In this document: one piece after another, positions 1,040-22,748 of the stretch | How positions within the stretch are numbered: the first letter of the stretch is position 1 | How the letters are laid out: each line of letters begins with the position of its first letter | Virus record (IMG/VR): IMGVR_UViG_3300013947_000009 | Span: 1 to 44,729 of that record | Strand: one strand, 5' to 3' | DNA: 44,729 nucleotides | DNA from: a virus | Translations under genes and position numbers: made by a program | Notes under the pieces: generated by a model | The model's input: only the letters and a program-made list of their open reading frames with translations | The model's database searches: none | What the model was told of the DNA's origin: nothing

Positions 1040-1210
1040 ATGACTGTCGCAGAATGTGCGAAATTGATGGGAAAATCCCCGCAATTCATTCGAGTAGGAC
1101 TACAGCGTGGCATTCTTCCATTTGGCTACGCTGTAAAAATGAGCAGCAAATGGACATATCATATTTCAGAGCACAAAGTGCTTGATTATTTAGGAGGTAA
1201 ACATGGCTAA
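1040..1210 (+). CDS. Small HTH_17/excisionase-family-like DNA-binding protein, 56 aa (below the ORF-track cutoff)
   Basis: Hand translation MTVAECAKLMGKSPQFIRVGLQRGILPFGYAVK...; ATG follows a GGAGGTGA RBS. Confidence 0.6.
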   Translation: MTVAECAKLMGKSPQFIRVGLQRGILPFGYAVKMSSKWTYHISEHKVLDYLGGKHG

Positions 1211-3710: not shown

Positions 3711-3765
3711 AAAAACATTCGAGAACAAAGTCAAAAAATTTCTTGAAGCCAACGAGGCATGGTTT

Positions 3766-4026
3766 GTGAAATTCTTCGCAAACTCATTTACGAAAGCAGG
3801 TATTCCGGATATTTTGACGTGTGTCAACGGTCATTTCGTTGGCATTGAAGTTAAAGCCCAGAATGGTAAACCCTCAGAGCTCCAACTTTACAACGTTAAA
3901 AAAATCCGTGAGGCCGGAGGATTCGCGATCGTGTTATATCCGTCTGGATTCGGAAAATTTAAGGAGTTTATTCTCGATTTAAGAAAAGACAACTACAACA
4001 AAGAAATGGAGGTTATTTTCAAATGA
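3766..4026 (+). CDS. VRR-NUC domain nuclease; start uncertain, frame is open from 3694
   Basis: GIPDIL..GHFVGIEVK..GKPSELQ motif; GTG at 3766, but homologous-looking N-terminus lies upstream without ATG/GTG/TTG. Confidence 0.75.
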   Translation: MKFFANSFTKAGIPDILTCVNGHFVGIEVKAQNGKPSELQLYNVKKIREAGGFAIVLYPSGFGKFKEFILDLRKDNYNKEMEVIFK

Positions 4027-4727: not shown

Positions 4728-4739
4728 GGAGGTAAGAGC

Positions 4740-5099
4740 ATGAAAGGTGTTTATGATATGACTGCTGATAGCGGTTGGAAAACATTACCCCTCGCAAGTG
4801 GAATTACGCCGAACAGCGATTCAGTAATTCCGCAGTACAGAAAAATCGGCGAAGCCGTTTATTTGCGTGGAGGAATAAAGGGAATTGTCAATGACAATAC
4901 GCTTATCGGAACGCTTCCTGCTGGTTACAGACCCGAAAGAGTCTTTCACTTTATTCAGAATAAGACCGCGAGCGGAAATATGCCAATGATTGCGCGATGG
5001 AAAATTGAAAGCGATGGTGACATTATAATGTCATTTAGCTATGACCAACCTGAAGCGACGCATTGGTTCGCGCTCGATTGCAACTTTTTGGTGGACTGA
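4740..5099 (+). CDS. Paralogue of the C-terminal domain of 4023-4727, 119 aa
   Basis: DSGWKTLPLASG..PQYRKIGEAVYLRG..LPAGYRP aligns with residues ~124-234 of the preceding protein. Confidence 0.6.
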   Translation: MKGVYDMTADSGWKTLPLASGITPNSDSVIPQYRKIGEAVYLRGGIKGIVNDNTLIGTLPAGYRPERVFHFIQNKTASGNMPMIARWKIESDGDIIMSFSYDQPEATHWFALDCNFLVD

Positions 5100-5101
5100 T
5101 T

Positions 5102-6745
5102 ATGCAGGTAAGTTATTCGAGAATCTCAACCTATGAGAAATGCCCGTATCAGTTTAAACTCCGTTACAAAGATGGGCTTGAGACAGTATTCAATTGTGAT
5201 CCTCAAAACGCTCTCATTCTCGGTCATGCGCTGCATACGGGAATTGAGAAAAACGTTGACGAGGCAATCAAAGAATATTATGCTGCCTATCCGGTGATTA
5301 AAGACGCTCACATAACTGAGGCTATGAAGTTGGAATATTTGATTCCGAAAGTTAAAAAACTTTTACCCAAGGGTCAGCATGAAGTAAAGATTGAGACTGA
5401 TGATTTTGTTGGATATATCGATTTGTTGGCTCCGATGGGTTATATGGCTAAAAACTCGATTTACAATTCATACGGCGAAGACGTTGACGTTTACGATCTT
5501 TACGACTTCAAGTATTCCAATAACGTTGGCAGCTATATGGAATCGGCTCAGCTTCATCTTTACAAATACTTCTTTGAGCTCAAAAATCCGGGTAAACGCA
5601 TAAGAAATCTATACTTTGTGTTTATTCCGAAATGCCAACTCAAACAGAAGTATAAGAACAAAACAAATTCGAGAGACGAAACGCTCTATGAATTTCGCAG
5701 GCGCTGCCTTGAAGATTTGGAATCAAAAGAAATCCGTATTGAACAAATCCAATATGACCCGAACAAGGTCATTGAATATCTCATCTCAACTAAACATTGC
5801 GTTGAGGCTACGGACTACCCTAAAAATACTACGCGCCTTTGTGATTGGTGCGAATATCAACTTTATTGTCAGAAAGGAATTGATTATATGAATCTCCCTG
5901 AAAATAAAAGAAGGGAAAAAACTCTCAACACCAAGCCCGACATGTGGATTTATGCCGACTCATACGTCGGAAAATCAACATTTGTAGACCAGATTGACAA
6001 TCTGATTTTTGCAAACACCGATGGTAATATCGAAAACATCACAAGCCCGGTTGTTCGCATTAAGGACGAGATCATCAAAAATGGCCGTATGACCGACAAA
6101 AAATTCGCATGGGAAGTATTCCTTGAATTTGTCGATGAGCTCGAAAAGAAAGAAAATTCATTCGAGGTTGTTGCTCTTGACCTGATGGAAGACCTCTATG
6201 AGCATTGTCGCTTGTATATCTATGACAAGCTCGGAATTGAGCATGAGCAGGACGCTGGATTCGGCAAGGGTTGGGATATGGTCCGCACTGAATTCCTTTC
6301 GACTATTAAGCGCCTGAAAAACCTCGGCTATCGAATTATTTACATTTCAAAAGAACTCAAGACCGAAATCAATCTCAAGAATGGCGCGAAAATTACAAGC
6401 TATGCACCGAACCTTCCTGATAAGGTTGCCAACGTTCTCGCCGGCACGGTTACTCTGACGCTCAGAGCATTCATGAACAACCGCGGAAGATTCCTTCAGC
6501 TTGCTAAGGAAGAAAATATTTTTGGAGGTGGGCGATTTGACTTTGTTCATGACACCTGCCCGCTCGATATCAACGCTTTTGTTGAAGAGCTCAAACTCGC
6601 TCAGGGCAGTGAAGAAGCTCCTAAAAGAAAGCCGGTTGAAGAAACGCCGGTAACAACTGAACCAGCAACAACTGAGTCATCAGATGATGAGGCGCCGGTA
6701 GCAGAAGAAGCACCGAAGCGTAGAACGAGAAAGAAAAGAGACTAA
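5102..6745 (+). CDS. Fusion of PD-(D/E)XK (Cas4/RecB-like) nuclease with AAA_24 (Sak4-like) ATPase, plus acidic/basic tail
   Basis: YSRISTYEKCPYQFKLRY plus C-terminal Cys cluster CDWCEYQLYC; then WIYADSYVGKST P-loop; ATG 5102 overlaps the preceding stop. Confidence 0.75.
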   Translation: MQVSYSRISTYEKCPYQFKLRYKDGLETVFNCDPQNALILGHALHTGIEKNVDEAIKEYYAAYPVIKDAHITEAMKLEYLIPKVKKLLPKGQHEVKIETDDFVGYIDLLAPMGYMAKNSIYNSYGEDVDVYDLYDFKYSNNVGSYMESAQLHLYKYFFELKNPGKRIRNLYFVFIPKCQLKQKYKNKTNSRDETLYEFRRRCLEDLESKEIRIEQIQYDPNKVIEYLISTKHCVEATDYPKNTTRLCDWCEYQLYCQKGIDYMNLPENKRREKTLNTKPDMWIYADSYVGKSTFVDQIDNLIFANTDGNIENITSPVVRIKDEIIKNGRMTDKKFAWEVFLEFVDELEKKENSFEVVALDLMEDLYEHCRLYIYDKLGIEHEQDAGFGKGWDMVRTEFLSTIKRLKNLGYRIIYISKELKTEINLKNGAKITSYAPNLPDKVANVLAGTVTLTLRAFMNNRGRFLQLAKEENIFGGGRFDFVHDTCPLDINAFVEELKLAQGSEEAPKRKPVEETPVTTEPATTESSDDEAPVAEEAPKRRTRKKRD

Positions 6746-6763
6746 TTAAGGAGGAACCCATAC

Positions 6764-7204
6764 ATGGATTTTTCAAAATTTGATAAAAAGGTAGACCTTG
6801 AAGGTCTTAAAAAAGATATTGAGGATAGCGCGAGCAGCGACTTCAAAGAGGTTCCTCTTGGTAGCTATGAGGTAGCTATTACTAAACTTGAACTTGGTGA
6901 ATCCAAAAAGAAAGACCCGATGGTAAAGGTTTGGTTCAAGATCGTTTCCGAGGGTGAATACAAAGGCAGTCTGATCTTTATGAATCAGGTTATCACGAAA
7001 GGCTTCCAGATTCATATTGTTGACGAATTTCTCAGAAGTCTCGGAACCGACATCGACATTCACTTTGATTCCTATTCTCAGTATGCCGATTTGCTGCTTG
7101 ATGTTTTTGAAGCTATTGATGGCAATTTCGAATTTGGCCTCAAATACGGCGAAAACAAAGGTTTCAACACGTTTAAGATCACAGACGTTTTTGAGCTTGA
7201 CTAA
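6764..7204 (+). CDS. DUF669-like protein (putative SSB-like partner of AAA_24)
   Basis: Size, sequence character and conserved position after AAA_24. Confidence 0.6.
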   Translation: MDFSKFDKKVDLEGLKKDIEDSASSDFKEVPLGSYEVAITKLELGESKKKDPMVKVWFKIVSEGEYKGSLIFMNQVITKGFQIHIVDEFLRSLGTDIDIHFDSYSQYADLLLDVFEAIDGNFEFGLKYGENKGFNTFKITDVFELD

Positions 7205-7266
7205 TCTTAAAGAATTCCTTGCGGGGTATTTATTACCCCGCGGGGTATTTCCGAAGGAGGAATTAG

Positions 7267-8031
7267 ATGGTACCAAGAATGCCGGAAGAATACAAAGGTC
7301 AAACAAATAAAAATGGTGGGTATACTACGAGCTCGCCGAGAGTGTGGACCAAACATGAATTAGAATGGGTTCAAAAACTTATTGCTGAAGGCTACTCAGT
7401 TAAAGAGATTGCGGAAAGTACCGATCGCACTGTCACTTCTGTTTCCATAAAAATCAAACGTCTTGGAAAAAAAGATGGGGGTTATAACGCGGACCATGTA
7501 GAAGAAAAGTATGAAATAAACGATGCATTTCTGAATGATATTAAGCCAGAATTTGTTCTTGATTGCTATTGCGGTAAACAAAATTTTTATAAAGATAAAG
7601 TTGCAGTAGTGACTAATGACATTGATGAAACTATTCCCGCAGATTATCACATGGATGCCTTAAAACTTCTTTGTGCACAATATCAGCGTGGTATGTCATT
7701 CGACTTAATTGATTTGGACCCATTCGGTAGTGCTTATGACTGTTTTGATTTAGCGATTAAAATGGCTCGGAAAGGCATAGTCATTACTTTTGGTGAGATG
7801 GGGCATAAACGTTGGAAACGCTTAGATTTTGTATCACGTTATTATGGTATCAATTCTCTTGATGATTTTCGCTTGGAGAAGATGATTCAGCACGTTCAGA
7901 TGATTGGACGAAGAAACAAGAAGAATCTCATCGTTTGCTATCAACGCGAATGGCGCAATATTGCAAGGGTTTGGTTTAAGATTGAACCTCTCAAAATCAC
8001 TGAGCAATGGGAGGGAAAATTAAATTGCTGA
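7267..8031 (+). CDS. HTH (Myb/sigma-r4-like) fused to a TRM1-like SAM methyltransferase fold
   Basis: VLDCYCG (motif I-like) and DLDPFGSAYDCFDLA (TRM1-type DPFGS motif). Confidence 0.55.
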   Translation: MVPRMPEEYKGQTNKNGGYTTSSPRVWTKHELEWVQKLIAEGYSVKEIAESTDRTVTSVSIKIKRLGKKDGGYNADHVEEKYEINDAFLNDIKPEFVLDCYCGKQNFYKDKVAVVTNDIDETIPADYHMDALKLLCAQYQRGMSFDLIDLDPFGSAYDCFDLAIKMARKGIVITFGEMGHKRWKRLDFVSRYYGINSLDDFRLEKMIQHVQMIGRRNKKNLIVCYQREWRNIARVWFKIEPLKITEQWEGKLNC

Positions 8032-9719
8032 ATTTTTACGATTTTGAGGTGTTTAAGGAAAATTGGCTGGTTGTCATAATCAATCCGGCTGAACGGTCAG
8101 AAACAATAATTGTCGATGATTCTGAAAAGCTGAAAGCCTATTATGAATCTCACAAAAATGAAATTTGGATCGGGTACAATAATCGTCGTTATGACCAGTA
8201 CATTATGAAAGCTATTCTTTGCGGATTTGATCCCAAGAAAGTCTCCGACTATTTAATTGTTGAAAATAAGGGAGGTTGGCAATATAGCAGTATGATGAAT
8301 AAGATTCCGATGATTAACTTTGACGTTATGCTTAAAAACGACGGAGGTCTTAAATCTCTTGAGGGATTCATGGGGAATGATATTCGAGAGACGAGCGTTC
8401 CATTTGATATTGACAGGAAGTTAACGGCCGAAGAAATTGCTGAAACTATCAAATATTGTAAGCACGACGTTGAGCAGACTATCGAAGTGTTTCTCAACCG
8501 AAAAGCAGAGTTTGACGCTGCCCTGGGATTGGTTAAGATTTTTAATCTTCCCATGAAGTTTATGGGAAAAACCGGCGCTCAAAGAGTTGCTCATATTTTG
8601 GGCGGAAAAGGTATTCATTATCACGATGAATTCGATTTTGAAATCGTTCCGACTCTGAAATTGAGTAAATATAAGTATATAGCTGATTGGTACCGAAACC
8701 CAGCTAATCGTGATTATAATAAAAAGCAAAAAGTCACGGTTGCAGGCGTCGAACACATTTTCGCTTGGGGAGGAATCCATGGGGCTATTCCAAAGTATTG
8801 TGATGAGGGAATTTTCTTGATGGCGGACGTTACAGCGTATTATCCCAGCTTACAGCTTCGATATAAATTCGGTTATCGCAATATGGTAAATCCCGAAAAT
8901 TTCGAGAAGATTCACGGCGAAAATTTAAGGCTTAAGAAAATTGATAAAAAAGCCAGACTTCCGTATAAAATTGCCGATAACGCAATTTCGGGCCAGCTCA
9001 AAGATAAGTATTCTCCGTTGTATGATCCGCGAGACAACAACGCAATCACTGTTAACGGACAGCTTTTGCTGCTTGATTTAATTGAAAAACTTGAGTCTCA
9101 CATTGAAAGACTGGTTCAATCTAATACCGATGGTATTCTCATCAAACTACGGTCAATTGATGACTATGAAAAAATTGACGATATCGTATGGGAATGGGAA
9201 CAACGAACGGGCATGCGAATGGGCTTTGACCTTTACACAAAAGTTTTTCAAAAGGACGTTAACAATTATTTAATTGTTGCTGAAGACGGAAGCACAAAAA
9301 CCAAGGGTGCCTATACTAAATCTTTGGGACCGCTCGATTTTGATTTGCCAATCATTAATAAAGCTATGGTTGAGTACATGAAAAATGGTACTCCTATAGA
9401 AAGAACGATTTTGGAATGTAATGAGCTTAAAATGTTCCAGAAAATCATAAAGTTGAGCGGTAAATATAAGTGCGTTTGGCACAACGGAAAATCATACACC
9501 GAAAAATGCTTCAGAGTCTTCGCAAGCCGATCTTCTTCAGATTCTTATATTGGCAAGCAAAAAAGCAACGGCGCAACGATTGAAAAGTTTGCAAACACCC
9601 CTGAACATTGTTTTGTTGATAATTCTGACATTAACGGAAAAAGTGTTCCCGATGAATTAGACAAACGATGGTATATCAATTTAACAAAAGAACGACTTGA
9701 ACAATATGGAGTGATTTAG
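8007..9719 (+). CDS. Family-B-like DNA polymerase with 3'-5' exonuclease domain; alternative TTG start at 8025
   Basis: Exo motifs FYDFEVF, GYNNRRYD, YCKHDV; pol motifs DVTAYYPSL, KIADNAISGQ, NTDGILI. Confidence 0.7.
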   Translation: MGGKIKLLNFYDFEVFKENWLVVIINPAERSETIIVDDSEKLKAYYESHKNEIWIGYNNRRYDQYIMKAILCGFDPKKVSDYLIVENKGGWQYSSMMNKIPMINFDVMLKNDGGLKSLEGFMGNDIRETSVPFDIDRKLTAEEIAETIKYCKHDVEQTIEVFLNRKAEFDAALGLVKIFNLPMKFMGKTGAQRVAHILGGKGIHYHDEFDFEIVPTLKLSKYKYIADWYRNPANRDYNKKQKVTVAGVEHIFAWGGIHGAIPKYCDEGIFLMADVTAYYPSLQLRYKFGYRNMVNPENFEKIHGENLRLKKIDKKARLPYKIADNAISGQLKDKYSPLYDPRDNNAITVNGQLLLLDLIEKLESHIERLVQSNTDGILIKLRSIDDYEKIDDIVWEWEQRTGMRMGFDLYTKVFQKDVNNYLIVAEDGSTKTKGAYTKSLGPLDFDLPIINKAMVEYMKNGTPIERTILECNELKMFQKIIKLSGKYKCVWHNGKSYTEKCFRVFASRSSSDSYIGKQKSNGATIEKFANTPEHCFVDNSDINGKSVPDELDKRWYINLTKERLEQYGVI

Positions 9720-9720
9720 A

Positions 9721-9927
9721 ATGACACATATGATTTACGAAACTCCGGGTACAAGGTACGGCCATTGGGAAGTATTGAGCTTCCACGAGGTAGATTCTCA
9801 CGGCGATGCTCGTTGGTGGTGTCGATGCTCAATATGCGGCGGAATTTATTCTGTAGCAGGATTCCGATTGCGTAACGGTAAATCAACGAAATGCTGGCCT
9901 TGCCATTTGCGGGAACCGAAGAGGTGA
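9721..9927 (+). CDS. Small zinc-ribbon protein, 68 aa
   Basis: CRCSICG...CWPC cysteine pairs. Confidence 0.6.
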   Translation: MTHMIYETPGTRYGHWEVLSFHEVDSHGDARWWCRCSICGGIYSVAGFRLRNGKSTKCWPCHLREPKR

Positions 9928-9932
9928 CGTGA

Positions 9933-11810
9933 TTGGAATTATTTCGCGGATACGTACCAACCAAGGATAAAAAATGCTTGATGAAATTCAAGAATTCGTC
10001 AGATTTGAAAAGTTATCGAGAAGTTAAAAATTTGCCTGAGTTTGCTGGAATACTCGCAGCCGACACGATTTTGATTGATGTTGATGATTTTCATCAATCA
10101 GAAATAATGATGGATATAGTTGAGGAGCTTCAACTGAGATGCCGAGTATATGCAACATCTCGAGGAAAGCATTTTCTTTTCAAAAATGACGGAGTAGAGA
10201 CAAACAAAATTCGCACGAAATTAGCTTGCGGATTGGAAGCTGATATTAAACTCGGAACTCGAAATAGTTACAGCGTGCTGAAATACGCCGGGAAAGAAAG
10301 AGAAATCATTTACGACATTTTCGAAGATGAAGATTATGAGCCTGTCCCTAAGTTTTTCACGCCTATTCAAACAAACATTGATTTTTTGAACATGGAGCAG
10401 GGAGATGGAAGAAATCAGTCATTATTCAATTATATCTTGACTCTTCAAAGCAATGACTTTTCAGTTGATGAGGCAAGACAGACGTTAAAGATCATCAATG
10501 ACCATGTGCTACCTGACCCGTTATCGGAGGAAGAATTGAGCACTCTATCACGCGATGACGCATTCAAAAAGCCGGTTTTCTTCAATAAAGGAAAGTTTCT
10601 TTTTGACAAGTTTGCAATCTTCCTCAAAAACAATAACCATATTGTCAGAATTAACGGGCAGCTACATATATATCGCGATGGTATTTACGTTGAGGGTCAA
10701 CCAGAAATTGAAGCAGCGATGATTGAGCATATTCCGAACCTAAACCGCTCGAAGCGAACAGAGATAACGAGTTATTTGGACATTCTCATTCGAAAGAATA
10801 TAAAAACCGATAATGCGAATCTCATAGCTTTCAGGAACGGCGTCTATGACCTTGAAACCGGTGAGCTGAGAGAATTCAGTCCGGATATTATAATTACGAA
10901 CAAAATCGATCATGATTATAACCCCGAGGCTTATAGCGAATTGGCCGACAAGACGCTTGATAAACTCGCTTGCGGAGACGCAGACGTCAGAGCCTTGTTG
11001 GAAGAAGCAATCGGTTATTGTTTCTATCGAAGAAATGAGTTAAGAAAATCTTTCATACTCACCGGCGATAAGAAAAACGGTAAATCGACATATCTGGCTG
11101 TTTTGAAAGAGCTGCTTGGAGACGTTAACACTGCGTCACTTGATTTGAATGAGTTGGGCGACAGGTTTTCGAGTGCCTCACTGTTCGGAAAGCTCGCAAA
11201 TATCGGCGACGATATTGCAGATGACTTTATTTCCAACCCGGCAATATTCAAAAAGATTGTTTCCGGCGATTGGATAAAAGGTGAGAACAAAGGTCAGAAA
11301 GAGTTTTTCTTCAAGCCTTATTGTAAGCTACTTTTCTCAGCCAACAATATTCCGAGAATTAAGGACAAATCGGGAGCAGTTCTTGACCGTTTGGTTATCG
11401 TTCCTTTTGACGCTCAATTCTCGAAAGATGACCCTGATTTTGATCCCTATATCAAGTATAAATTAATTCAGGAAGATTCATTGCAATACTTGATTTTGTT
11501 GGGAATTAAAGGGTTGAAGCGGGTACTCGATAACCGAGAATTTACTCAATCGGCCAAAGTACAAAGGTCCATTGATGAATACAAGGAAACGAACAATCCG
11601 ATTCTATTATTCTTCAAAGAAGACGTGCAAATTATCAACGAGCCAACGAATGAGGTATATCGCAAATATACGGAATTTTGTTTGGCAAACAGCTTCACGC
11701 CAATGAGCAACATCGAGTTTTCTAAACAAATCAAAAAGCACTATGGCGTTGAAATCAAAAGTAAAAGTATCAACGGTAAAAAATACCGCATATTTGTTGA
11801 AAGGAGTTAG
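9933..11810 (+). CDS. Bifunctional prim-pol / D5_N / P4-family primase-helicase
   Basis: ILIDVDD and SRGKH prim-pol motifs; Walker A GDKKNGKST; Walker B NIGDD; TTG start (ATG alternative at 9981). Confidence 0.85.
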   Translation: MELFRGYVPTKDKKCLMKFKNSSDLKSYREVKNLPEFAGILAADTILIDVDDFHQSEIMMDIVEELQLRCRVYATSRGKHFLFKNDGVETNKIRTKLACGLEADIKLGTRNSYSVLKYAGKEREIIYDIFEDEDYEPVPKFFTPIQTNIDFLNMEQGDGRNQSLFNYILTLQSNDFSVDEARQTLKIINDHVLPDPLSEEELSTLSRDDAFKKPVFFNKGKFLFDKFAIFLKNNNHIVRINGQLHIYRDGIYVEGQPEIEAAMIEHIPNLNRSKRTEITSYLDILIRKNIKTDNANLIAFRNGVYDLETGELREFSPDIIITNKIDHDYNPEAYSELADKTLDKLACGDADVRALLEEAIGYCFYRRNELRKSFILTGDKKNGKSTYLAVLKELLGDVNTASLDLNELGDRFSSASLFGKLANIGDDIADDFISNPAIFKKIVSGDWIKGENKGQKEFFFKPYCKLLFSANNIPRIKDKSGAVLDRLVIVPFDAQFSKDDPDFDPYIKYKLIQEDSLQYLILLGIKGLKRVLDNREFTQSAKVQRSIDEYKETNNPILLFFKEDVQIINEPTNEVYRKYTEFCLANSFTPMSNIEFSKQIKKHYGVEIKSKSINGKKYRIFVERS

Positions 11811-11812
11811 TT

Positions 11813-12139
11813 ATGACAAGTGAACGATTTAACGAGATTGTGAGAGAGCAGGTTGACACGTGCATGAGCTTGCTCGGAGTTAAAGGCGATGAATACGACA
11901 CAAATTCAAATGACCGTCTTCATGCTTTTAAAGCGGCAGCAGAAATTCAGTACGTCACACCTAAACAAGCTCTCGCGGGCATGATGGCCAAGCATACCAT
12001 ATCTATTTATGACATGCTTGCGAATGCCGATGAAAAACCTCCCGTTGAGAAATGGGTCGAAAAAATTTCAGACAGCATTAACTACTTGCTGTTACTGAGA
12101 GCAATTATTCAAGAGGAGATTGACAATAATGAAGCGTGA
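11813..12139 (+). CDS. DUF1599/MazG-like all-alpha protein (nucleotide-metabolism associated)
   Basis: GVKGDEYD...RLHAFKAAAEI...KH pattern; family call tentative. Confidence 0.45.
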   Translation: MTSERFNEIVREQVDTCMSLLGVKGDEYDTNSNDRLHAFKAAAEIQYVTPKQALAGMMAKHTISIYDMLANADEKPPVEKWVEKISDSINYLLLLRAIIQEEIDNNEA

Positions 12140-12266
12140 AGTAGTTACAGTTGTTAAGTATACCGAAGATTATATTCTTCTGAGTGACGGCAAAGAAATC
12201 CGCCCTCCTCATGGGCAAAAGTTTGATTTGGACGTCATTAAAAAAATATGGGAGGTGACGGATTGA
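12129..12266 (+). CDS. Small hypothetical protein, 45 aa
   Basis: Hand translation MKREVVTVVKYTEDYILLSDGKEIRPPHGQKFDLDVIKKIWEVTD; stop abuts the next ATG. Confidence 0.45.
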   Translation: MKREVVTVVKYTEDYILLSDGKEIRPPHGQKFDLDVIKKIWEVTD

Positions 12267-13058
12267 ATGCAATATAACAACATGGATGATATTTATCGTA
12301 TTATTTGTCGGCAGTTGCTTTACGCCCCGAAAGTTGGCGAAACTCGTGAAATAAACGGCTATTCATTTACCCTCACGAATTTGGACAACAACGTCGTTAA
12401 TATTCGCAATATTTCCAAATCGTATATTTGTGGAGAATTGCTTTGGTATGTGTTGGGCCGAAATGACGTGGGATTCATCAGCAAGTTTGCTAAACTCTGG
12501 GAAAGAATCAGCGACGATGGAAAAACATCGAACTCAGCTTATGGAGATATTATCCTCAAGCGCCACGGTTTTAACCAAGTTGATACCATTATTAGGCTTT
12601 TGAAGAAAGACCCGTTGAGTCGTCGAGCGGTAATCAATTTCAATGTGCCGAATCCAAACGTGATTAATACAAAAGATGAGATTTGTACCGTTGCTTTGCA
12701 ATTCCTCATTCGAAATGGAAAACTCAATGCGTATGGCTTGATGCGCAGCAACGATGTTTGGTTTGGTCTTCCGTATGATGTGATATTTTTCACAGAGTTG
12801 CAAAAGTACATCGCTCGCAAATTGGGAGTAGATTGTGGAACATATACACATACAGCAAATAGCTTGCATGTATATGAGCGGAATCTCCCTGATTTGGAAA
12901 AGGTTATATTTGCGAAGTCTGAGACTAAAATCTCCGTGGATTTTCAAAAATTCTGGATGTGCCGATATGGACTTGAAAGCGTCGTTGAAACATCGGATGA
13001 TCCGAGAAAGGAGCTTGTCGAAACGTGCGAACGCTTGAATATATTGAAAACGATTTGA
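12267..13058 (+). CDS. Thymidylate-synthase-family enzyme; predicted pyrimidine C5 hydroxymethylase/methylase acting on dCMP
   Basis: ThyA motifs ELLWY, DPLSRR, catalytic C140 (DEICT), RSND, GLPYD (Asp171 where TS has Asn), HVYE. Confidence 0.8.
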   Translation: MQYNNMDDIYRIICRQLLYAPKVGETREINGYSFTLTNLDNNVVNIRNISKSYICGELLWYVLGRNDVGFISKFAKLWERISDDGKTSNSAYGDIILKRHGFNQVDTIIRLLKKDPLSRRAVINFNVPNPNVINTKDEICTVALQFLIRNGKLNAYGLMRSNDVWFGLPYDVIFFTELQKYIARKLGVDCGTYTHTANSLHVYERNLPDLEKVIFAKSETKISVDFQKFWMCRYGLESVVETSDDPRKELVETCERLNILKTI

Positions 13059-13261
13059 CCTCGTGCATTTTCTCGTCTATAAATCAACGATGCGCTATTT
13101 TGACAGCGACTAAATGCCCTAAAAATTGCGCTTTTAAGAAGTCATTGACTGAATATCTTGACGGAATGCTCCATGCCGAAGAGATTCTTCGAGAAAAAGG
13201 ATTGAAGCGCGTAATGGCGTCTATAGACAACAACGAAATTGTAACTACTAAAAAGGAGTAA
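13025..13261 (+). CDS. Cys-rich small hypothetical protein, 78 aa, GTG start
   Basis: ORF fills the gap between the ThyA-like gene and the methyltransferase; start uncertain. Confidence 0.45.
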   Translation: MRTLEYIENDLTSCIFSSINQRCAILTATKCPKNCAFKKSLTEYLDGMLHAEEILREKGLKRVMASIDNNEIVTTKKE

Positions 13262-13266
13262 TTATT

Positions 13267-14019
13267 ATGGCAAAAGAAATTTACAACAAAACCCAACTCA
13301 CACCGCAGCAAGAATTTGAAAGACACATTTACCACCGCGATCAGTTTGCGCACTATCTGAGATGGTCGCATGTTCTGAAAGTCGCAAAAATCGGTCAAAA
13401 GATTCTTGACTTCGGTTGCGGATCAGGCGAAATGCTTGAGCTATTCTACCGCAATAAATTCAGACCTAAGAGATATTTGGGCCTGGACATTCGCCAGCAA
13501 ACAATCAAAGAAAACCAGGAGAAATTCGCAAAGCTCGATTTTGCTGAATTCAGACAGGCAGACCTCTGTCAGAGTGAGCTTGACCTTGGAGAAGACTTTG
13601 ACATTATTACTTGTTTTGAAGTGATGGAGCATATCGGCCATGCCAATGCAGACAAATTCCTTGAAAATATCTGGTATCACTGCGGCAAAGATACAAGGGT
13701 ATATCTGAGCACGCCGAACTATGATCCAAAAGTAGGAGCAGCAAAAAATCACCTTCTGGGGCCTGATAAAGAAATCGGCGAATGGGATCATTTCGAGCTT
13801 CAGGAAAAATTGAGCGAATATTTCGACATTGAGGCGAAATACGGCACGTTTGCAAGCATGAAAGACTACAAGGAAGAAATCGTCGGAGATTGGAGACAGC
13901 AGATGTTCGATGCTCTGAAAGAATATTATGACACGAACCTCATCTCGGTAATTATGGCGCCTCTCATTAAACCAGAACATGCTCGCAACTGCTTGTGGGT
14001 ACTGCGCGCAAAGGAGTGA
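13267..14019 (+). CDS. Class I SAM-dependent methyltransferase
   Basis: ILDFGCGSGEM motif I, DIITCFEVMEHI. Confidence 0.8.
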   Translation: MAKEIYNKTQLTPQQEFERHIYHRDQFAHYLRWSHVLKVAKIGQKILDFGCGSGEMLELFYRNKFRPKRYLGLDIRQQTIKENQEKFAKLDFAEFRQADLCQSELDLGEDFDIITCFEVMEHIGHANADKFLENIWYHCGKDTRVYLSTPNYDPKVGAAKNHLLGPDKEIGEWDHFELQEKLSEYFDIEAKYGTFASMKDYKEEIVGDWRQQMFDALKEYYDTNLISVIMAPLIKPEHARNCLWVLRAKE

Positions 14020-14024
14020 GTTTT

Positions 14025-14354
14025 ATGCACATAAAAATGCACAATGGCAAGGCTTATGGCGTGCAATTCACAGCAAGAGAGCGCGAAGCAATGCATAAGG
14101 AAGTCAACAGGCAGCTCGTTGAACAAATGCGCGAGCTCGGAACTGACGTTGATGCCCTGATTCTGTGGGTGCTACACGTTGAGTTTGGATTCGGCAAACA
14201 GAGGTTGAAAAGATTTTTTGACGTGTTCACAAAAGAATATGAATACATGGGCGAATATTACGACATGCCCAAGGATGTTCCTTGGATTTGCCGTACAAAG
14301 CTGAAAGAAATCGGCGTTGACATTGAACAATGGAATAAGGAGGCAAAACAATGA
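14025..14354 (+). CDS. Hypothetical protein, 109 aa
   Basis: ATG 14025 preceded by AAGGAG; track start 13995 overlaps the previous gene. Confidence 0.6.
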   Translation: MHIKMHNGKAYGVQFTAREREAMHKEVNRQLVEQMRELGTDVDALILWVLHVEFGFGKQRLKRFFDVFTKEYEYMGEYYDMPKDVPWICRTKLKEIGVDIEQWNKEAKQ

Positions 14355-14596
14355 TTTGCATGAAGAAAAAAATTAAGGTTGAGGACATTATTATTCCCGG
14401 CATTTTTGCCGGGAGCACCCCTAAACCTACGAAGCTGATCGAAAAGACAGCCGAGTATTTGGAATCAGGCAAAATCGCGTCGGTGTATGTTGACCGAAAT
14501 AAAGTGCTGGTTGACGGCTATTGCAGCTATTTGATTCTGAAAACGCTCGGCGTAAAGAAAATTAAATGTGTACAGATAAAGGAGAAAGATAGATGA
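14351..14596 (+). CDS. Small degenerate ParB/Srx-like N-terminal domain protein
   Basis: VLVDGYCSYLILKTLGVKKI resembles the ParB DGHHR region but lacks those residues. Confidence 0.4.
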   Translation: MICMKKKIKVEDIIIPGIFAGSTPKPTKLIEKTAEYLESGKIASVYVDRNKVLVDGYCSYLILKTLGVKKIKCVQIKEKDR

Positions 14597-14889
14597 TTCT
14601 TACATTATGCGGAAGTACGAAATTTAAGGATGATTTTATACGAGTGAATAAAGAGCTCACACTTGCTGGAAATGTCGTCCTCTCGGTCGGATGTTTTGGT
14701 CATAGTGGTGATTTTATCACCGACGAACAGAAGCTCATGCTCGATGCAATTCATAAGCGAAAAATTGACTTGTCAGAAGGCATATATGTCATCAACAAGG
14801 GCGGTTATATTGGTTCTTCGACGCGCGAGGAAATCAAATACGCAAGGAGCCATGGAAAATCAATCTTTTATATGGAGGAGCAAAAATGA
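14593..14889 (+). CDS. Nucleoside 2-deoxyribosyltransferase-superfamily-like small protein
   Basis: MILTLCGS..., HKRKIDLSEGIYVIN..GYIGSSTREEIKYA pattern. Confidence 0.45.
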   Translation: MILTLCGSTKFKDDFIRVNKELTLAGNVVLSVGCFGHSGDFITDEQKLMLDAIHKRKIDLSEGIYVINKGGYIGSSTREEIKYARSHGKSIFYMEEQK

Positions 14890-15305
14890 AGGTAAAAGTC
14901 ATCGATTTTGGTTATGAAAAGCTGCCGTTCAGAGCACATGAAAACGATGCCGGAGCAGATGTCTACGCGCACTTGCCCAACAGACGAGTCGGTGTTTGGC
15001 CTCATGAAACTGTGAAAATTCCGCTCGGTTTGGGCCTCTGTTTGCCTGATGGATATATGGCTTGCGTATTCCCCAGGAGCGGTTTGGCGAGCAAGGGACT
15101 TGTCTGTGAGCTTCCCCCTATCGATTCGGGTTACCGCGGAGAGATTCACGCGATTGTTACGAATTGCAGTAATGTCAAGCAATTTGTCAATGATGGAGAC
15201 AGAATTGGGCAACTGGTAATCACTCCGGTAGTAGTTGCTGACTTCATCACGGAAGACATTAAGGTGAGAGGCAACAGTGGTTTTGGCTCAACTGGGCTAA
15301 AATGA
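14886..15305 (+). CDS. dut: Trimeric dUTPase
   Basis: All five motifs: AGADVYA, PRSGLA, IDSGYRGEI, GDRIGQLV, RGNSGFGSTG. Confidence 0.92.
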   Translation: MKVKVIDFGYEKLPFRAHENDAGADVYAHLPNRRVGVWPHETVKIPLGLGLCLPDGYMACVFPRSGLASKGLVCELPPIDSGYRGEIHAIVTNCSNVKQFVNDGDRIGQLVITPVVVADFITEDIKVRGNSGFGSTGLK

Positions 15306-15332
15306 TTCTATATGTGAAGAATGGTATAAGAT
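15301..15332. repeat. Inner inverted repeat, partner of 163-194
   Basis: Exact reverse complement; overlaps the dUTPase stop codon. Confidence 0.9.
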
Positions 15333-15369
15333 CGGTATAAGATCGGTATAAGATGAATTCATTCATCTT
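15323..15369. promoter_or_regulatory. Candidate recombinase-binding array: three tandem 11-bp units ggtataagat(c/g) (15323-15355) overlapping dyad aagatga-attcat-tcatctt (15350-15369)
   Basis: Exact tandem repeats with 11-bp phasing; ggtataag/cttatacc also recurs at 15464-15471, 15568-15575 and in IR copy A. Confidence 0.5.
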
Positions 15370-15394
15370 CAACTCCTGTTTCGATAAGAATAGT

Positions 15395-15460
15395 TAGCGT
15401 GATGATTAAATAATGATTGCTGACGATATTATTTTTAATCGTCACGCTACTTTTCAATTT
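15395..15460 (+). terminator. Long hairpin (16-bp stem, one G-U pair, 23-nt loop) followed by a T-rich tract; putative early-operon terminator
   Basis: tagcgtgatgattaaa ... tttaatcgtcacgcta then cttttcaatttt. Confidence 0.5.
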
Positions 15461-15461
15461 T

Positions 15462-15590
15462 GCGGTATAAGATGGACAAGATACTTTTTAGTCTTAGATA
15501 ATATAGCACTTTAACTTTTAGCTAAGCTCTATTATATATAAGTAAAATAGTTAAGTTATACTATACTCTTATACCATTCTTCTGAAAGAG
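15462..15590. repeat. IR copy B (129 bp), exact reverse complement of copy A; ends 8 nt before the integrase ATG
   Basis: Block-by-block comparison, 0 mismatches. Confidence 0.95.
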
Positions 15591-15598
15591 GAGATTAT

Positions 15599-16603
15599 AT
15601 GAGAAGAGCAAATGGAGAAGGTTCGATTTTTAAATTAGGCGGAAAACGGCGAAAACCATGGGCCGTTAGAATCACAACCGGATATGAAGATGACGGTAAA
15701 CAGATTTATAAATATGTTGGATATTACCCAACCAAGACAGAAGCTAAAGAAGCAATGAGGGAATACTTAGTCAATCCATTCAATTTGGATCATAAGAGCA
15801 CAAAGCTCAAGGACGTTTATGATAGATGGTTAGACCAAGCTGATCTTGCTCAAACGACATTGCAAAGTTATACGTCCGCCTTTAATCAGGCGAAGCAATT
15901 ACATAACATGAACATGAGAGATATTAAGGCCGTACATCTGGAAGCAGCCATGGACCAGATGAAACCGCACATGCGCAGCGTATTTAAAAATGCAATGGGA
16001 AAAGTATACATATATGCTATCAAGCACGAAATTGTTGATAAGGACATCGTGAGTCTAATTTCAATTAAAACTATGGTTGAAACAAGAGAGAAAACTCCAT
16101 TCACTTTGGCTGAGATTAACAAGTTAAAATCTTTCAAGCATCCATTAAATGATACCGTTTTCATTTTGCTTTATACCGGAATGCGGATCAATGAATTGCT
16201 TGAGATTAAATGTGAAAATGTTTACTTAGATAAAAGGTATATGATTGGGGGTAAAAAGACGAAAGCCGGACAAAATCGAGTTATCCCAATTCACAATGCG
16301 ATTTATCCTTTGATTAAAGCGAGATATGAACAGGGGAATAAATACCTGATAACAAAGGATAATAAGAAAATCAGTTACGCTACATATCGGATCAGTTATT
16401 GGAACAAGATGACCTCAGCTCTGAAATTCAAACATACTCCCCATGATACTCGACACACGTTTACCACATTTGCAGATAGATATGAGGTTAATAAGGTTGC
16501 ACTGAAAAGAATTCTCGGGCACACATTAAACGACACGACTGATCACTATACGCATAAGGACCTCAGCGAATTATTGACTGAGATCAACAAAATTGAATAT
16601 TAA
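15599..16603 (+). CDS. int: Tyrosine recombinase / phage integrase with AP2-like N-terminal arm-binding domain
   Basis: N-terminal GSIFK...KPWAVRIT; catalytic-domain R...HDTRHTF...LGH...HYTH. Confidence 0.92.
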   Translation: MRRANGEGSIFKLGGKRRKPWAVRITTGYEDDGKQIYKYVGYYPTKTEAKEAMREYLVNPFNLDHKSTKLKDVYDRWLDQADLAQTTLQSYTSAFNQAKQLHNMNMRDIKAVHLEAAMDQMKPHMRSVFKNAMGKVYIYAIKHEIVDKDIVSLISIKTMVETREKTPFTLAEINKLKSFKHPLNDTVFILLYTGMRINELLEIKCENVYLDKRYMIGGKKTKAGQNRVIPIHNAIYPLIKARYEQGNKYLITKDNKKISYATYRISYWNKMTSALKFKHTPHDTRHTFTTFADRYEVNKVALKRILGHTLNDTTDHYTHKDLSELLTEINKIEY

Positions 16604-16629
16604 AAAAGAGCCTCGCGGCTCTTTTTTTG
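16602..16629. terminator. Bidirectional rho-independent terminator
   Basis: aaaaaagagcc-tcgc-ggctcttttttt between convergent genes. Confidence 0.85.
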
Positions 16630-16881
16630 TTATCTACACCAATCTTTATTTATCATTTCTTCATCTGCAATTCTTTTAATAGACGGACATTCATTACTCT
16701 TCAAATTTGCCCATACTTGGTATGGGTTTTCTGCCTGCCATACTACTTTTCCATCGTACATGCTGCACATTCTAATAAGAATACCATGTTGCTCTAAAAA
16801 TGTTTTCAAGATGAAGAACTCTTCACTACTTGATTTTATTAGATTTGTTTTCTGTCCGTATTCTTCTGTTATATGTTCCAT
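16630..16881 (-). CDS. Hypothetical protein, 83 aa
   Basis: ORF ending at the bidirectional terminator. Confidence 0.55.
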   Translation of the reverse strand: MEHITEEYGQKTNLIKSSSEEFFILKTFLEQHGILIRMCSMYDGKVVWQAENPYQVWANLKSNECPSIKRIADEEMINKDWCR

Positions 16882-17104: not shown

Positions 17105-17150
17105 AGTTTTTAATCTCCTTTGCTTTTTTGTTTAGCTTTATTATAGTTAT

Positions 17151-17179
17151 ATTATACAACTTTAGTTGTAGTTTGTACA
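17151..17179 (-). promoter_or_regulatory. P1: family promoter TGTACA-17-TATAAT with dyad TACAAC-N4-GTTGTA in the spacer
   Basis: Hexamers and dyad read on the - strand. Confidence 0.7.
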
Positions 17180-17402
17180 TAGGCAAAATGCACAAAGATA
17201 TATTTATTTTTTGTGTATATTTATTGTATATTATAGGTGCTTTTTCATACGTTTTTATACATTCTTAAACGTTGTTATATCAATGTTCCTTTTGATTTTA
17301 TACACTTTTTAAATTTTCCCAACAAAATTTAAGAATGTGATAACGTCAACGTTTGTATGTTGATTTGTATATTGCAAGCATATTGCAGAATAGAAAATGA
17401 AA

Positions 17403-17906: not shown

Positions 17907-17954
17907 GTTTATATCTCCTTCAAAAATCATATTCGGTGGTTAACCGTTGATTTA

Positions 17955-17983
17955 ATTATACAACGATAGTTGTAGTTTGTACA
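17955..17983 (-). promoter_or_regulatory. P2: family promoter TGTACA-17-TATAAT with dyad
   Basis: gtgTGTACAaactacaactatcgttgTATAATtaaa on the - strand. Confidence 0.7.
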
Positions 17984-18037
17984 CACTTTTGACCCACTTT
18001 TAATATTTTTTAATATGTTATAATTAAGTCATATCAT

Positions 18038-18997: not shown

Positions 18998-19029
18998 TTT
19001 TAATTACCTCCGTTTGATTTGATATACTT

Positions 19030-19058
19030 ATTATACAACTAAAGTTGTATAATGTACA
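19030..19058 (-). promoter_or_regulatory. P4: family promoter TGTACA-17-TATAAT with perfect dyad
   Basis: ctaTGTACAttatacaactttagttgTATAATaag on the - strand. Confidence 0.75.
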
Positions 19059-19091
19059 TAGTTTTTCCTGATTTCTAATATTTTTTAATAA

Positions 19092-19112
19092 TGTAACCCA
19101 TGCAAATTTCAA
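19092..19112. repeat. 21-bp inverted repeat, left arm (partner 20480-20500)
   Basis: tgtaacccatgcaaatttcaa is the exact reverse complement of ttgaaatttgcatgggttaca. Confidence 0.9.
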
Positions 19113-19135: not shown

Positions 19136-19176
19136 TACAACTTTCGTTGTACATTATACAACTATCGTTATATAAT
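19136..19176 (+). promoter_or_regulatory. P5: family promoter TGTACA-17-TATAAT with two dyads (19136-19151, 19157-19172)
   Basis: agTACAACtttcGTTGTACAttaTACAACtatcGTTATATAAT. Confidence 0.75.
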
Positions 19177-19223
19177 AAGAATATAAGCTAATCAAGCTTA
19201 ATAACTTTCGAGGAGAGATTAAA

Positions 19224-19630: not shown

Positions 19631-19652
19631 GCAAAAAAAAATTTATTTTTTA

Positions 19653-19693
19653 TACAACTAACAGTGTACAAAGTACACTTTTCGTTGTATAAT
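19653..19693 (+). promoter_or_regulatory. P6: family promoter TGTACA-17-TATAAT with two imperfect dyads
   Basis: TACAACtaacAGTGTACAaagTACACTtttcGTTGTATAAT; leader nearly identical to that of P5. Confidence 0.7.
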
Positions 19694-19740
19694 TATATTA
19701 TAAGCTAATCAAGCTTAATAACTTTTAGGGAGAGATTAAA

Positions 19741-20717: not shown

Positions 20718-20750
20718 TTTTAATTACCTTCTTTCGTTTGGTGTGATTAT

Positions 20751-20779
20751 ATTATACAACAAAAGTTGTATAATGTACA
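20751..20779 (-). promoter_or_regulatory. P7: family promoter TGTACA-17-TATAAT with perfect dyad
   Basis: aaTGTACAttatacaacttttgttgTATAATataatc on the - strand. Confidence 0.75.
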
Positions 20780-20828
20780 TTAGCAAAATAACCAAAGGTT
20801 AAGAAGTTTTCTTGTGTATTTTGTATAT

Positions 20829-21563: not shown

Positions 21564-22748
21564 TTATTTCAGACCTACTGAAATGAGATATCCCTCCCCA
21601 GCAGGAACCTTATTTGTAATTGAGACTTGGACGTTGCCATAGGTGATTGCGACATTTAAAAATTCAGGCGGAACAATTATTTCTTCCCAATGTGCATATA
21701 AATCAGTCGTTCCTGTTGGCGTGAATGGGTCGCCACTGCCTCCGACTCTTGCACCGCCTTCTGCCGCCGTGTACCATCCTAAGAACGTGTAGCCATCTCT
21801 TGTTGGCGTTGGCAAGGTGACCGCAGGCATGGCTGACCAATGTGCATATAAATCAGTCGTTCCTGTTGGCGTGAATGGGTCGCCACTGCCTCCGACTCTT
21901 GCACCGCCTTCTGCCGCCGTGTACCATCCCAGAAAATCCGCAGATGAATAAAGAGTCTCAATCGTTTCATTGCCATCGTTATGATGTAGCTGAACCGAAT
22001 ATTTTTTCTCGAACCAATTAGTTTGCAGCGCATCGCTTATATCTTTCTGCATAGAAACTCTTCCGTATTCGCCGCTTGTCGCCCCATTGCCGTCGTAGGA
22101 TACGAGAACCAAGTCGATATCAAAAAAAGCCTTGTAACTCAAACTCGTTAAATATGTAGTCTGCTCTCCATTTGCCAGCGTGACGGTTCTTGTCGCGTTC
22201 GTGTTGCCATCAGACCATCTTGTAAACTCATAACCTTTCGCAGGCATCGCCGTGATAGTTACACTTGTTCCAACTTCATACGTTCCGGCTCCGCTGACGG
22301 TTCCCTCTCCTTGTTTAGAAAGGGAAACAAAAAATTTAGGATTTTCATATGTATAATGAACTTTCAGGTGAAAAATGTACCAAATTCTTGAGCTACCACT
22401 CAGATGAATTTTAATTTCTCCAGTTGGTCTGCCGGGGTATTCATCTTTGGAAGAAAAGTAGTCTTGAAGCCCGGAACGAGTATTTGTCGGATTGTTGTTC
22501 CATCCTTCGCATGTATCGCCGATTTTTGTCCCATTGATATAAAGATCGCTGTCTCCGCTGATAGTACCCTCACAGCCCCAGCGCAATTCAACGGAAACAT
22601 TTGTGAGCTTCGCATATTTTGGTATGAGATTCGCTGTGCCGTTCTGAACTTCATCGGCCGAAATACTTCTATCAACATTTTGCCTCAAGCCGAAAAGCTT
22701 TCCGTATTGTTCCTTGCTTCCGATAGCGGTATATGTAACTGTTGGCAT
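21564..22748 (-). CDS. Listeria-Bacteroides (InlB B-type) repeat protein; probable adhesin or tail accessory
   Basis: G(Y/F)..GWYTAAEGGARVG...TDLYAHW twice; GYEFTRWSDG; N-terminal domain unrecognised. Confidence 0.7.
   Translation of the reverse strand: MPTVTYTAIGSKEQYGKLFGLRQNVDRSISADEVQNGTANLIPKYAKLTNVSVELRWGCEGTISGDSDLYINGTKIGDTCEGWNNNPTNTRSGLQDYFSSKDEYPGRPTGEIKIHLSGSSRIWYIFHLKVHYTYENPKFFVSLSKQGEGTVSGAGTYEVGTSVTITAMPAKGYEFTRWSDGNTNATRTVTLANGEQTTYLTSLSYKAFFDIDLVLVSYDGNGATSGEYGRVSMQKDISDALQTNWFEKKYSVQLHHNDGNETIETLYSSADFLGWYTAAEGGARVGGSGDPFTPTGTTDLYAHWSAMPAVTLPTPTRDGYTFLGWYTAAEGGARVGGSGDPFTPTGTTDLYAHWEEIIVPPEFLNVAITYGNVQVSITNKVPAGEGYLISVGLK
21687..21929. repeat. Two perfect 93-bp direct repeats (21687-21779, 21837-21929) inside the B-repeat gene
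   Basis: Direct string comparison. Confidence 0.9.

Follow-up and report, generated by a model that had tools for sequence, protein, structure and literature searches.

Genes and inverted repeat at the locus

The window of this report, i.e., the whole stretch of DNA that was analyzed, is the 44,729-nucleotide viral record IMGVR_UViG_3300013947_000009 of IMG/VR. Its subject is a perfect 129-bp inverted repeat whose two copies run up to the starts of an integrase gene (int) and of a gene for a small sigma-70 region-4-like regulator, here called the sigma-like gene. The ends of the window overlap by 35 bp (positions 1 to 35 are the same as 44695 to 44729), giving a circular contig of 44,694 bp, and the overlap falls within the second copy of the repeat. 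Copy A occupies positions 15462 to 15590 on the plus strand and ends 8 nt before the ATG (15599) of int, which encodes a tyrosine recombinase with Phage_integrase and Arm-DNA-bind_4 domains (15599 to 16603, plus strand). Copy B lies on the minus strand across the contig junction and is the reverse complement of 44651 to 44694 joined to 1 to 85. Its first, gene-proximal part (44651 to 44729, of which 44695 to 44729 duplicate 1 to 35) comes to within 15 nt of the ATG (44635) of the sigma-like gene (44246 to 44635, minus strand), and its second part (1 to 85) includes, at 74 to 83, an exact copy of the short word described below.

The two copies match at 129 of 129 positions and diverge exactly at the ribosome-binding sites of the two genes, as a preliminary description of this DNA had reported; its corollary, that int and the late-regulator gene share all cis elements held in the 129 bp, holds by virtue of the same identity. 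All independent public contigs of this phage that extend into the region, from 12 different samples, contain the exact 129-mer, and so it is neither a chance match nor a one-off assembly artifact. Strain L005 differs from the window at 46 of 844 and 32 of 802 positions in the flanks (4 to 5.5%) and at 0 of 129 positions in the repeat.

The copies divide the circle into two segments. The early segment (86 to 15461, 15.4 kb), which is bracketed by them, extends from a cI-like HTH_3 repressor gene (195 to 542, minus strand), the last early-segment gene before the module that contains copy B, to a dUTPase gene (14886 to 15305, plus strand), the last gene of the early/replication operon before the module that contains copy A. 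Its plus-strand genes encode an SNF2 helicase, a protein in which an AAA_24 domain is fused to a PD-(D/E)XK nuclease domain and which we take to be a Sak4-type recombinase, a DNA polymerase (8007 to 9719), a P4-family primase-helicase, ThyA, a methyltransferase, and the dUTPase. The other segment, of 29 kb, contains int and accessory genes, which are followed on the minus strand by the sigma-like gene and the terminase, head, tail, and lysis genes. In the window the dUTPase gene reads into int, and the cI gene into the sigma-like gene. The order that is standard for temperate phages results when the early segment is turned around: int and cI are then on one strand, and the early genes, dUTPase, the sigma-like gene, and the packaging-to-lysis genes follow on the other; we refer to this as the usual order.

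The sigma-like gene opens the minus-strand block in which the packaging, structural, and lysis genes are also found, and this position suggests that its product is a late regulator. The protein matches PHROG family phrog_36, "transcriptional regulator," and otherwise gives only subthreshold hits to sigma-70 region 4 and ECF-type proteins; it looks like a truncated sigma-70 or ECF-type protein with region 4 only. The label "ArpU-like" given to it previously is dropped here, as no significant match to the ArpU family was obtained. A scan of IMG/VR with the sigma-like protein found none. At the equivalent place in Paenibacillus phage Wanderer there are genes annotated as sigma-28 and sigma-24 subunits.

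Architecture of the module

Two features beyond those in the preliminary description accompany the repeat, namely, an outer inverted repeat of 58 nt with 90% identity and a repeated 10-bp word, GGTATAAGAT, all six exact copies of which in the genome lie within the two module regions. Within copy A, two tandem words (GGTATAAGAT at 15464 to 15473 and GGACAAGAT at 15474 to 15482) are followed by an AT-rich center of about 80 bp (approximately 15484 to 15565), with a GC content of 22 to 23% compared to 40 to 55% in the flanks. To its right there are an inverted word, CTCTTATACC, at 15566 to 15575 and a degenerate second inverted word. Outer word array A (15300 to 15357, plus strand) contains three tandem GGTATAAGAT words with an 11-bp period (15323 to 15354), the third of which pairs with an inverted partial copy to give a small hairpin (AAGATGAA-TTCA-TTCATCTT, 15350 to 15369). 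Its inverted partner, outer word array B (138 to 195, minus strand), stands directly after the stop codon of the cI-like gene and has GGTATAAGAT at 163 to 172 and two AGTACAAGAT words at 141 to 161.

Outer array A is separated from copy A by spacer A, 104 bp of unique sequence (15358 to 15461, plus strand), and copy B is separated from outer array B by spacer B, 52 bp of unique sequence (86 to 137, minus strand) that is unrelated to spacer A. The complete module, i.e., the 129-mer, spacer, and outer array, thus measures roughly 290 bp. Spacer A holds a long, nearly perfect hairpin (TAGCGTGATGATTAAA...TTTAATCGTCACGCTA, approximately 15396 to 15452) followed by CTTTTCAATTTT, which together look like a terminator of the early operon, although a consensus terminator scan did not list this hairpin.

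The preliminary description had also considered a promoter inside the repeat. The sigma-70-like match there is TGGACA-18 nt-GATAAT (15473 to 15502), with its -35 box inside the second word. Sigma-70-like sites in the repeat are nevertheless at the level of shuffled sequence (2 found, 3.4 expected), and the spacing of the match to the words is not kept in relatives or in other word classes; the match gives no support for an internal promoter. The notion that the words themselves are promoter hexamers was likewise rejected, since the word classes keep no -35-like or -10-like sequence and the spacing varies. An Rfam scan of the whole window found no family, and a DNA similarity search with positions 14600 to 16700 found no match among deposited phages.

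Modules in related phages

The IMG/VR relatives whose Int is 85 to 88% identical to that of the window all have the usual order, and all carry an inverted pair: the gap between cI and int is homologous, in inverted orientation, to the gap between dUTPase and the sigma-like gene. The second copies were detected by self-BLAST; an exact 28-mer from the int-proximal repeat matched once per contig. The inverted copies are 74 to 81% identical over 120 to 208 bp, with the words kept, in L041, L043, L046, L048, and L051, the last of which carries the pair even though its Int is only 43% identical to that of the window. They are 97% identical in L047 and 100% identical in L053, and both of these contigs end in the repeat. 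The AT-rich centers differ between the two copies of the relatives. This range of identities across relatives indicates that the inverted pair is an old feature of the family that has been homogenized repeatedly, and identity of 100% in the window, compared to 74 to 81% in most relatives, points to gene conversion as the process that made the window's copies identical.

Clustered 8-mers were sought de novo among 80 loci with this primase-helicase, and about 40 of the phages (primase identity of 55 to 70%) proved to have one module of the same layout, 3 to 4 kb downstream of the primase gene. The words in these phages are GTTCAAGAT or GAACAGAT. Most of them have no detectable int or cI of the window's type, and the module stands immediately before the sigma-like homolog wherever that gene is detectable (about 20 of the roughly 40 phages). 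The layout in these phages comprises an outer array that includes one inverted copy, a pair of tandem words, an AT-rich stretch, and a pair of inverted words, often with a third word set next to the ribosome-binding site. Two direct and two to three inverted words are clearly seen in relatives. It had been suggested that the repeat might be a neutral landing pad, with the expression of either gene depending on the operon that an inversion places upstream; conservation of the architecture in about 40 related phages and its invariance between diverged strains speak against neutrality.

In the isolated phage Wanderer, whose primase is 49% identical to that of the window, the 257-bp gap that follows the primase gene is taken up by a module of the same layout with the word GTAACAGAT. 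Locus L127, in effect a natural knockout, encodes homologs of Int (43%) and of the sigma-like protein (46%) and has no P4-family primase in its fully covered early region, and no module was found there before either int or the sigma-like gene.

A second inverted module of iteron type was also observed at the left edge of the early region in L075 (75 to 329), L050 (389 to 595), and L052 (2216 to 2424). These loci use other word classes (GTTCAAGAT and AGTCAAGAT), and no int or cI homolog was detected in the stretch fetched, which suggests that the bracketing of early genes extends beyond the window's subfamily. An exact scan of IMG/VR for the ACAACTATTT array pattern found none, and a 39-mer of the window repeat found none in IMG/VR or in the JGI metagenomes.

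The primase-helicase and the module words

The gene at 9933 to 11810 (plus strand) passes the NCBIfam model TIGR01613, "phage/plasmid primase, P4 family," with 209.9 bits against a cutoff of 108.7, and its product is the proposed initiator that would read the words. Its sole relative in the PDB is PriRep5 of SaPI5, a Staphylococcus aureus pathogenicity island (SaPI) (7OLA; E value of 1e-42 over residues 244 to 604), and its tail aligns to residues 671 to 745 of PriRep5. Domain hits include D5_N, DUF5906, a C-terminal Pox_D5 (E value of 6e-5), and a weak RFX, consistent with a winged-helix tail. The Rep proteins of SaPIs are self-loading helicases as well as initiators, and their C-terminal winged helix reads short iterons (PMC9371898). 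SaPI origins have 6 to 12 iterons just downstream of rep, arranged around an AT-rich center with at least two iterons per side pointing in opposite directions (PMC9371898). The window module has the same layout, with at least six short repeats, an AT-rich center, and oppositely pointing sides, and the phage encodes a P4-family/Pri-Rep primase-helicase with a predicted C-terminal winged helix.

Words differ by lineage, and the classes recognized are GGTATAAGAT, AGTCAAGAT, GTTCAAGAT, GAACAGAT, and GTAACAGAT. They do not follow the proteins encoded next to the modules. The window's int and cI are 85 to 95% identical to those of AGTCAAGAT phages and only 40 to 44% identical to those of L051 and L053, which use GGTATAAGAT as the window does. 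In distant Int lineages a module is kept before int, with words that bear no relation to these: L122 and L123 have ACAACTATTT, as do Int lineages of 50% identity such as JAFXUJ010000015.1, and L125 and L126 have CCGTAAAGTGTA-like words. The arm-binding domain of Int is nevertheless almost invariant between L122, L123, L125, and L126 and the GGTATAAGAT phages. L051 and L122, for example, have near-identical Int arm domains with the words GGTATAAGAT and ACAACTATTT, respectively. The words are therefore not the arm-type sites of an attP read by Int, and this assignment was ruled out.

Two parts of the primase-helicase, by contrast, vary with the word. Residues 380 to 500, in the helicase, are 80 to 87% identical to those of same-word phages, compared to 62 to 75% for others. 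The wing of the winged helix, beside the conserved recognition helix, carries the hexapeptide SKSING in the window and L051 and TKSVKG in L053; in the other classes it is mostly DKTIKG (AGTCAAGAT), DKKI(D/N)G (GTTCAAGAT), or AKYI(R/K)G (GAACAGAT). The word thus tracks the wing hexapeptide and this helicase segment, and not Int, cI, or the sigma-like protein, in a relationship that is correlative. A conserved helix, SNIEFSKQVKK, may be the counterpart of the conserved AGAT end of the words. A search for window proteins that follow the word class gave no clean candidate besides these parts of the primase-helicase. The open reading frames (ORFs) at 4023 to 4727 and 4740 to 5099 were considered as candidates and discarded, as they resemble those of L053 and are absent from L051.

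Orientation of the early segment in public assemblies

A census of isomers was taken in about 25 public contigs of the same phage that exact-protein look-ups had found. Of the junctions of the usual order, cI to repeat to int was seen in 7 samples and dUTPase to repeat to the sigma-like gene in 2. Of the window-type junctions, cI to repeat to the sigma-like gene was seen in one gap-free contig type (L006/L019), which is listed for 2 samples and comes from a strain about 1.8% divergent from the window, and dUTPase to repeat to int was seen in the window only. The usual order, with at least 9 sample-junctions, therefore predominates in public assemblies, and the window, with that one contig type, represents the rarer, flipped form. 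The preliminary description had proposed a large inversion between the copies, and the presence of both orientations in public assemblies backs it.

A 129-bp repeat is nonetheless able to mislead short-read assemblers. The contig ERZ808272 NODE_97 (44,716 bp) matches all segments of the window at 100% identity and yet has the usual order. MEGAHIT k119 contigs of 29,115 bp (L002) and 15,614 bp (L015) end exactly at the repeat and correspond to the two segments, and the two MEGAHIT k141 contigs that cross the repeat have the usual order. Since the window itself ends inside the repeat, the circular path was opened in the repeat node, and the orientation of the segment is ambiguous in a de Bruijn graph. 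The flipped form in the window is either a real minority isomer or a path chosen by the assembler.

Integration and other repeats in the window

A single-protein scan with Int across 185,579 species genomes found no relative, and a profile scan of species genomes found relatives only on phage-sized contigs of metagenome-assembled genomes (MAGs). Taxonomy is inconsistent among the MAG bins in which they occur (Ruminococcaceae, Christensenellaceae, Elusimicrobiaceae, and Alphaproteobacteria). No integrated relative was found, as Int homologs of at least 40% identity are all on contigs of at most 51 kb, though absence from databases is not proof; no contig longer than about 51 kb occurs among the best 120 of 694 Int homologs, loci L121 to L150 included. 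Since no chromosomal integration was seen, the phage may exist as an episome, or Int may serve some other function. A scan of the window for tRNA genes found none, so there is no clue to an attachment site of the tRNA type.

Several other repeats are present in the window. A palindromic, operator-like element, TATTATACAAC-N4-GTTGTATAATGTACA, occurs seven times. Six of the sites fall between int and the lysis genes, in the accessory/lysogeny region (17147 to 17197, 17951 to 18017, 19029 to 19092, 19148 to 19184 [inverted], 19650 to 19711, and 20747 to 20797), and the seventh (44182 to 44245) immediately follows the sigma-like gene and precedes the next late-block gene. These sites are probably an operator/promoter set for one of the small helix-turn-helix proteins. 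A perfect 93-bp direct repeat (21687 to 21779 and 21837 to 21929, at 150-bp spacing) lies in the ORF at 21564 to 22748, which has Flg_new repeats and is likely a tail or receptor-binding protein. The number of repeats varies, strain L002 being without one 150-bp unit (344 amino acids compared to 394). Several families of 33-bp tandem repeats occur at 40070 to 40600 within the ORF at 39972 to 41180, whose relatives have a Gp10_C hit and whose protein length varies by strain (388, 399, or 402 amino acids). A stretch of about 315 bp (43532 to 43863) between a gene of 94 codons and a holin-like gene is absent in L005, L006, L008, L010, and L012.

Discussion

The layout of the module, its company with a P4-family primase-helicase, and the agreement of its words with parts of that protein lead us to think it rather likely that an iteron-type replication origin has the 129-bp repeat at its core, that it occurs as two inverted copies, and that it serves the P4/SaPI-type primase-helicase which the phage itself encodes. 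The protein would bind the words, melt the AT-rich center, and load itself there. The ancestral copy would be the one at the end of the replication operon, running up to the start of the late-regulator gene, and in the window's subfamily a second, inverted copy would have come to lie between the cI-like gene and int. With that second copy, the 15-kb early segment would have an origin at either end, and the first genes outside it, int and the sigma-like gene, would start after the same sequence. The identity would stop at the ribosome-binding sites because the module ends there. An identity that extends up to those sites is thus most likely the combined product of a module edge and gene conversion rather than a leader selected for expression.

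The two copies would exchange sequence by gene conversion, and recombination between them would also flip the early segment and so produce two genome isomers, of which the window would be the flipped one. Either the RecA protein of the host or the AAA_24/PD-(D/E)XK protein of the phage could provide the route. Such flipping, if it occurs in vivo, may change little for int and the sigma-like gene, since the same 129 bp is upstream of both in either orientation and the hairpin of spacer A stays joined to the dUTPase gene in either isomer. Coregulation of int and the late regulator, e.g., by initiator bound beside both ribosome-binding sites, is possible as a secondary consequence.

A number of observations weigh against an origin, or fit it imperfectly. 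The window module is 3.5 kb from the primase gene, compared to immediately downstream in SaPIs, and in the window and most relatives 3 to 4 kb of accessory genes (ThyA, methyltransferase, and dUTPase) intervene. The constant neighbor of the module is the sigma-like gene rather than the primase gene, which would fit a regulatory element too. The words are 9 to 10 bp, compared to 5 to 6 bp in SaPIs, and of the two inverted words on the right side of the 129-mer, one is good and the other degenerate. As for the tracking, only the wing and one helicase segment of the primase follow the word, and the C-terminal domain as a whole is closer to that of the AGTCAAGAT class (66 to 72%) than to that of its own class (55 to 64%). 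The window's word class has just three members, and so shared ancestry could explain part of the agreement. With respect to flipping, the usual order is the only one seen in relatives with copies so diverged that an assembler could not mistake them, and the k141 contigs that span the repeat have it as well, so that frequent flipping finds no support. The identity of the module as an origin, the binding of the initiator, and the activity of the origin are all argued by comparison.

The position of the module next to the sigma-like gene invites another explanation, that it is a shared transcription-control module in which the words are operators of a regulator other than the initiator, flanking a promoter, with one protein switching int and the late regulator together. 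Tandem short repeats that flank a promoter are known for ParR/parC and for omega-type repressors, and they are a precedent for such an arrangement. It would account for a module that always reaches the ribosome-binding site of the sigma-like gene, even with 3.5 kb of genes between it and the primase gene. If the terminator-like hairpin of spacer A stops the early operon, the sigma-like gene may need a promoter of its own, and the sigma-70-like match with its -35 box in the second word would be the candidate. That match, however, is no better than those in shuffled sequence, with unconserved spacing; the word follows none of cI, Int, and the sigma-like protein; and no regulator was found that follows the word class in all three same-word phages. 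L127, moreover, keeps Int and the sigma-like gene and is without both the primase and the module. We therefore regard a dedicated control module as unlikely. It is compatible with an origin, as an initiator that binds there could also regulate both genes.

A programmed inversion switch would give the repeat a different role again, with the modules serving as attP-like sites at which the adjacent Int flips the early segment and so rewires which operon reads into int and into the late-regulator gene. The proximity of int to one copy, the arm-binding domain of Int, the likeness to attP of direct and inverted short repeats around an AT-rich center over about 260 bp, and the occurrence of both orientations in assemblies are all in keeping with it, and the lack of an integrated prophage among Int relatives of at least 40% identity might mean that Int has another job. 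We consider it highly improbable, as the Int arm domain is nearly invariant across lineages with unrelated words, the module precedes the sigma-like gene in many phages without a detected int or cI of the window's type, and in Wanderer it comes directly after the primase gene. All two-copy relatives examined also share one orientation of the early region, and their two copies differ in the AT-rich centers. Another account of the flipped order concerns only the flipping step and is compatible with an origin: the usual order alone would exist in nature, and the window, like contig L006/L019, would record an arbitrary path of the assembler through a repeat that exceeds the k-mer in length. We find this hard to call and lean slightly away from it. 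The 35-bp overlap by which the window ends inside the repeat, the usual order of the otherwise identical NODE_97, the behavior of the k119 and k141 contigs, and the usual order of every relative with diverged copies are what it would predict. On the other side, the junction from cI through the repeat to the sigma-like gene is gap-free, is from a second strain background, and is listed for two samples. The perfect identity over 129 bp, together with 97 to 100% in two other lineages, shows that the copies recombine, and the phage encodes a putative Sak4-type recombinase, for which 129 bp of homology would be ample.

If the repeat is indeed a duplicated origin, the pair might do more than replicate the genome. 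As a working device rather than a relic of duplication, the pair would recombine during replication, and the flip would, as in the 2-micron plasmid, turn two converging replication forks into chasing forks and so supply concatemers for packaging without a separate rolling-circle initiator, and the initiator, bound beside both ribosome-binding sites, would tie the expression of int and the sigma-like gene to the onset of replication; we judge this proposal, which draws on analogy, quite improbable. Since no integrated copy was found, the phage might persist as a plasmid-like prophage, with the second set of iterons acting in copy-number control.

Should the assignment be correct, it would offer a sequence-level way to find origins in a large group of uncultured gut Firmicutes phages and in isolates like Wanderer, the signature being iteron arrays, located where the replication genes meet the late-regulator gene, whose words vary along with the primase-helicase. 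It would also describe a phage genome with two oppositely oriented copies of its origin, one on either side of the early genes, and it would provide a tractable bacterial parallel to the origin-bearing inverted repeats of herpesviruses and to the flip-flop replication of the 2-micron plasmid. For viral catalogs there is a practical consequence, in that such genomes break or are misoriented in short-read assemblies, and some oddities of gene order may be flipped isomers. Identical DNA upstream of integrase and late-regulator genes should also not be taken to mean a shared promoter unless transcript data say so.

Comparison with known systems

A literature search found no temperate phage whose early genes are enclosed by an origin and its inverted duplicate, and a search on phage genome isomers and on the ori and crr of P4 found nothing directly relevant. 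The arrangement is unusual but is built from known parts. By its components it resembles the SaPIs, which have a homologous primase-helicase, oppositely pointing repeats around an AT-rich center downstream of the replication gene or genes, and a lineage-specific word read by a C-terminal winged helix, a reading that is predicted for the phage described here. The phage differs in having two inverted copies about 15 kb apart, words of 9 to 10 bp, and an extra outer array; in the location of its module, 3.5 kb from the primase gene and abutting the late-regulator gene; and in being a full temperate phage rather than a satellite.

The nearest precedent for two sites appears to be satellite phage P4, in which ori and crr lie several kilobases apart, have the same iterons, and are both bound by the C-terminal domain of the alpha primase-helicase. 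P4 and the window thus share a P4-family primase-helicase and two separate cis regions with the same short iterons. The crr of P4 is a direct duplication with a layout different from that of ori, whereas the sites of the window are near-identical inverted copies that bracket the early region, each abutting the start of a gene.

Herpes simplex virus 1 has oriS in the inverted repeats that flank its short unique segment, its ICP22 and ICP47 genes share identical upstream and leader sequence, and its genome forms isomers through recombination between the repeats. The likeness lies in an origin that is within an inverted repeat and hence occurs twice, in shared upstream sequence at the ends of a segment, and in isomerization. 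With a eukaryotic virus, unrelated proteins, and repeats of kilobase size, this is the nearest analogy in design, and in design only. The 2-micron plasmid of yeast, with FLP/FRT in inverted repeats of 599 bp, and the flip-flop of the chloroplast inverted repeat are other cases of a circle with one pair of inverted repeats and two isomers, and, as in the window, there can be a tyrosine recombinase gene beside one repeat. The window repeat looks like an origin, however, and not like the target of a recombinase, and its words do not track Int.

Phage lambda couples the same two kinds of genes by other means, in that CII controls both pI, for int, and paQ, which is antisense to the late regulator Q. 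One protein there recognizes short direct repeats at each of the two genes, integrase and late regulator, which is the kind of coupling that the preliminary description had proposed. No such regulator was identified in the window. In lambda the outcomes at the two genes are opposite and the elements are small promoter elements, compared to a duplicated 129-bp module in the window.

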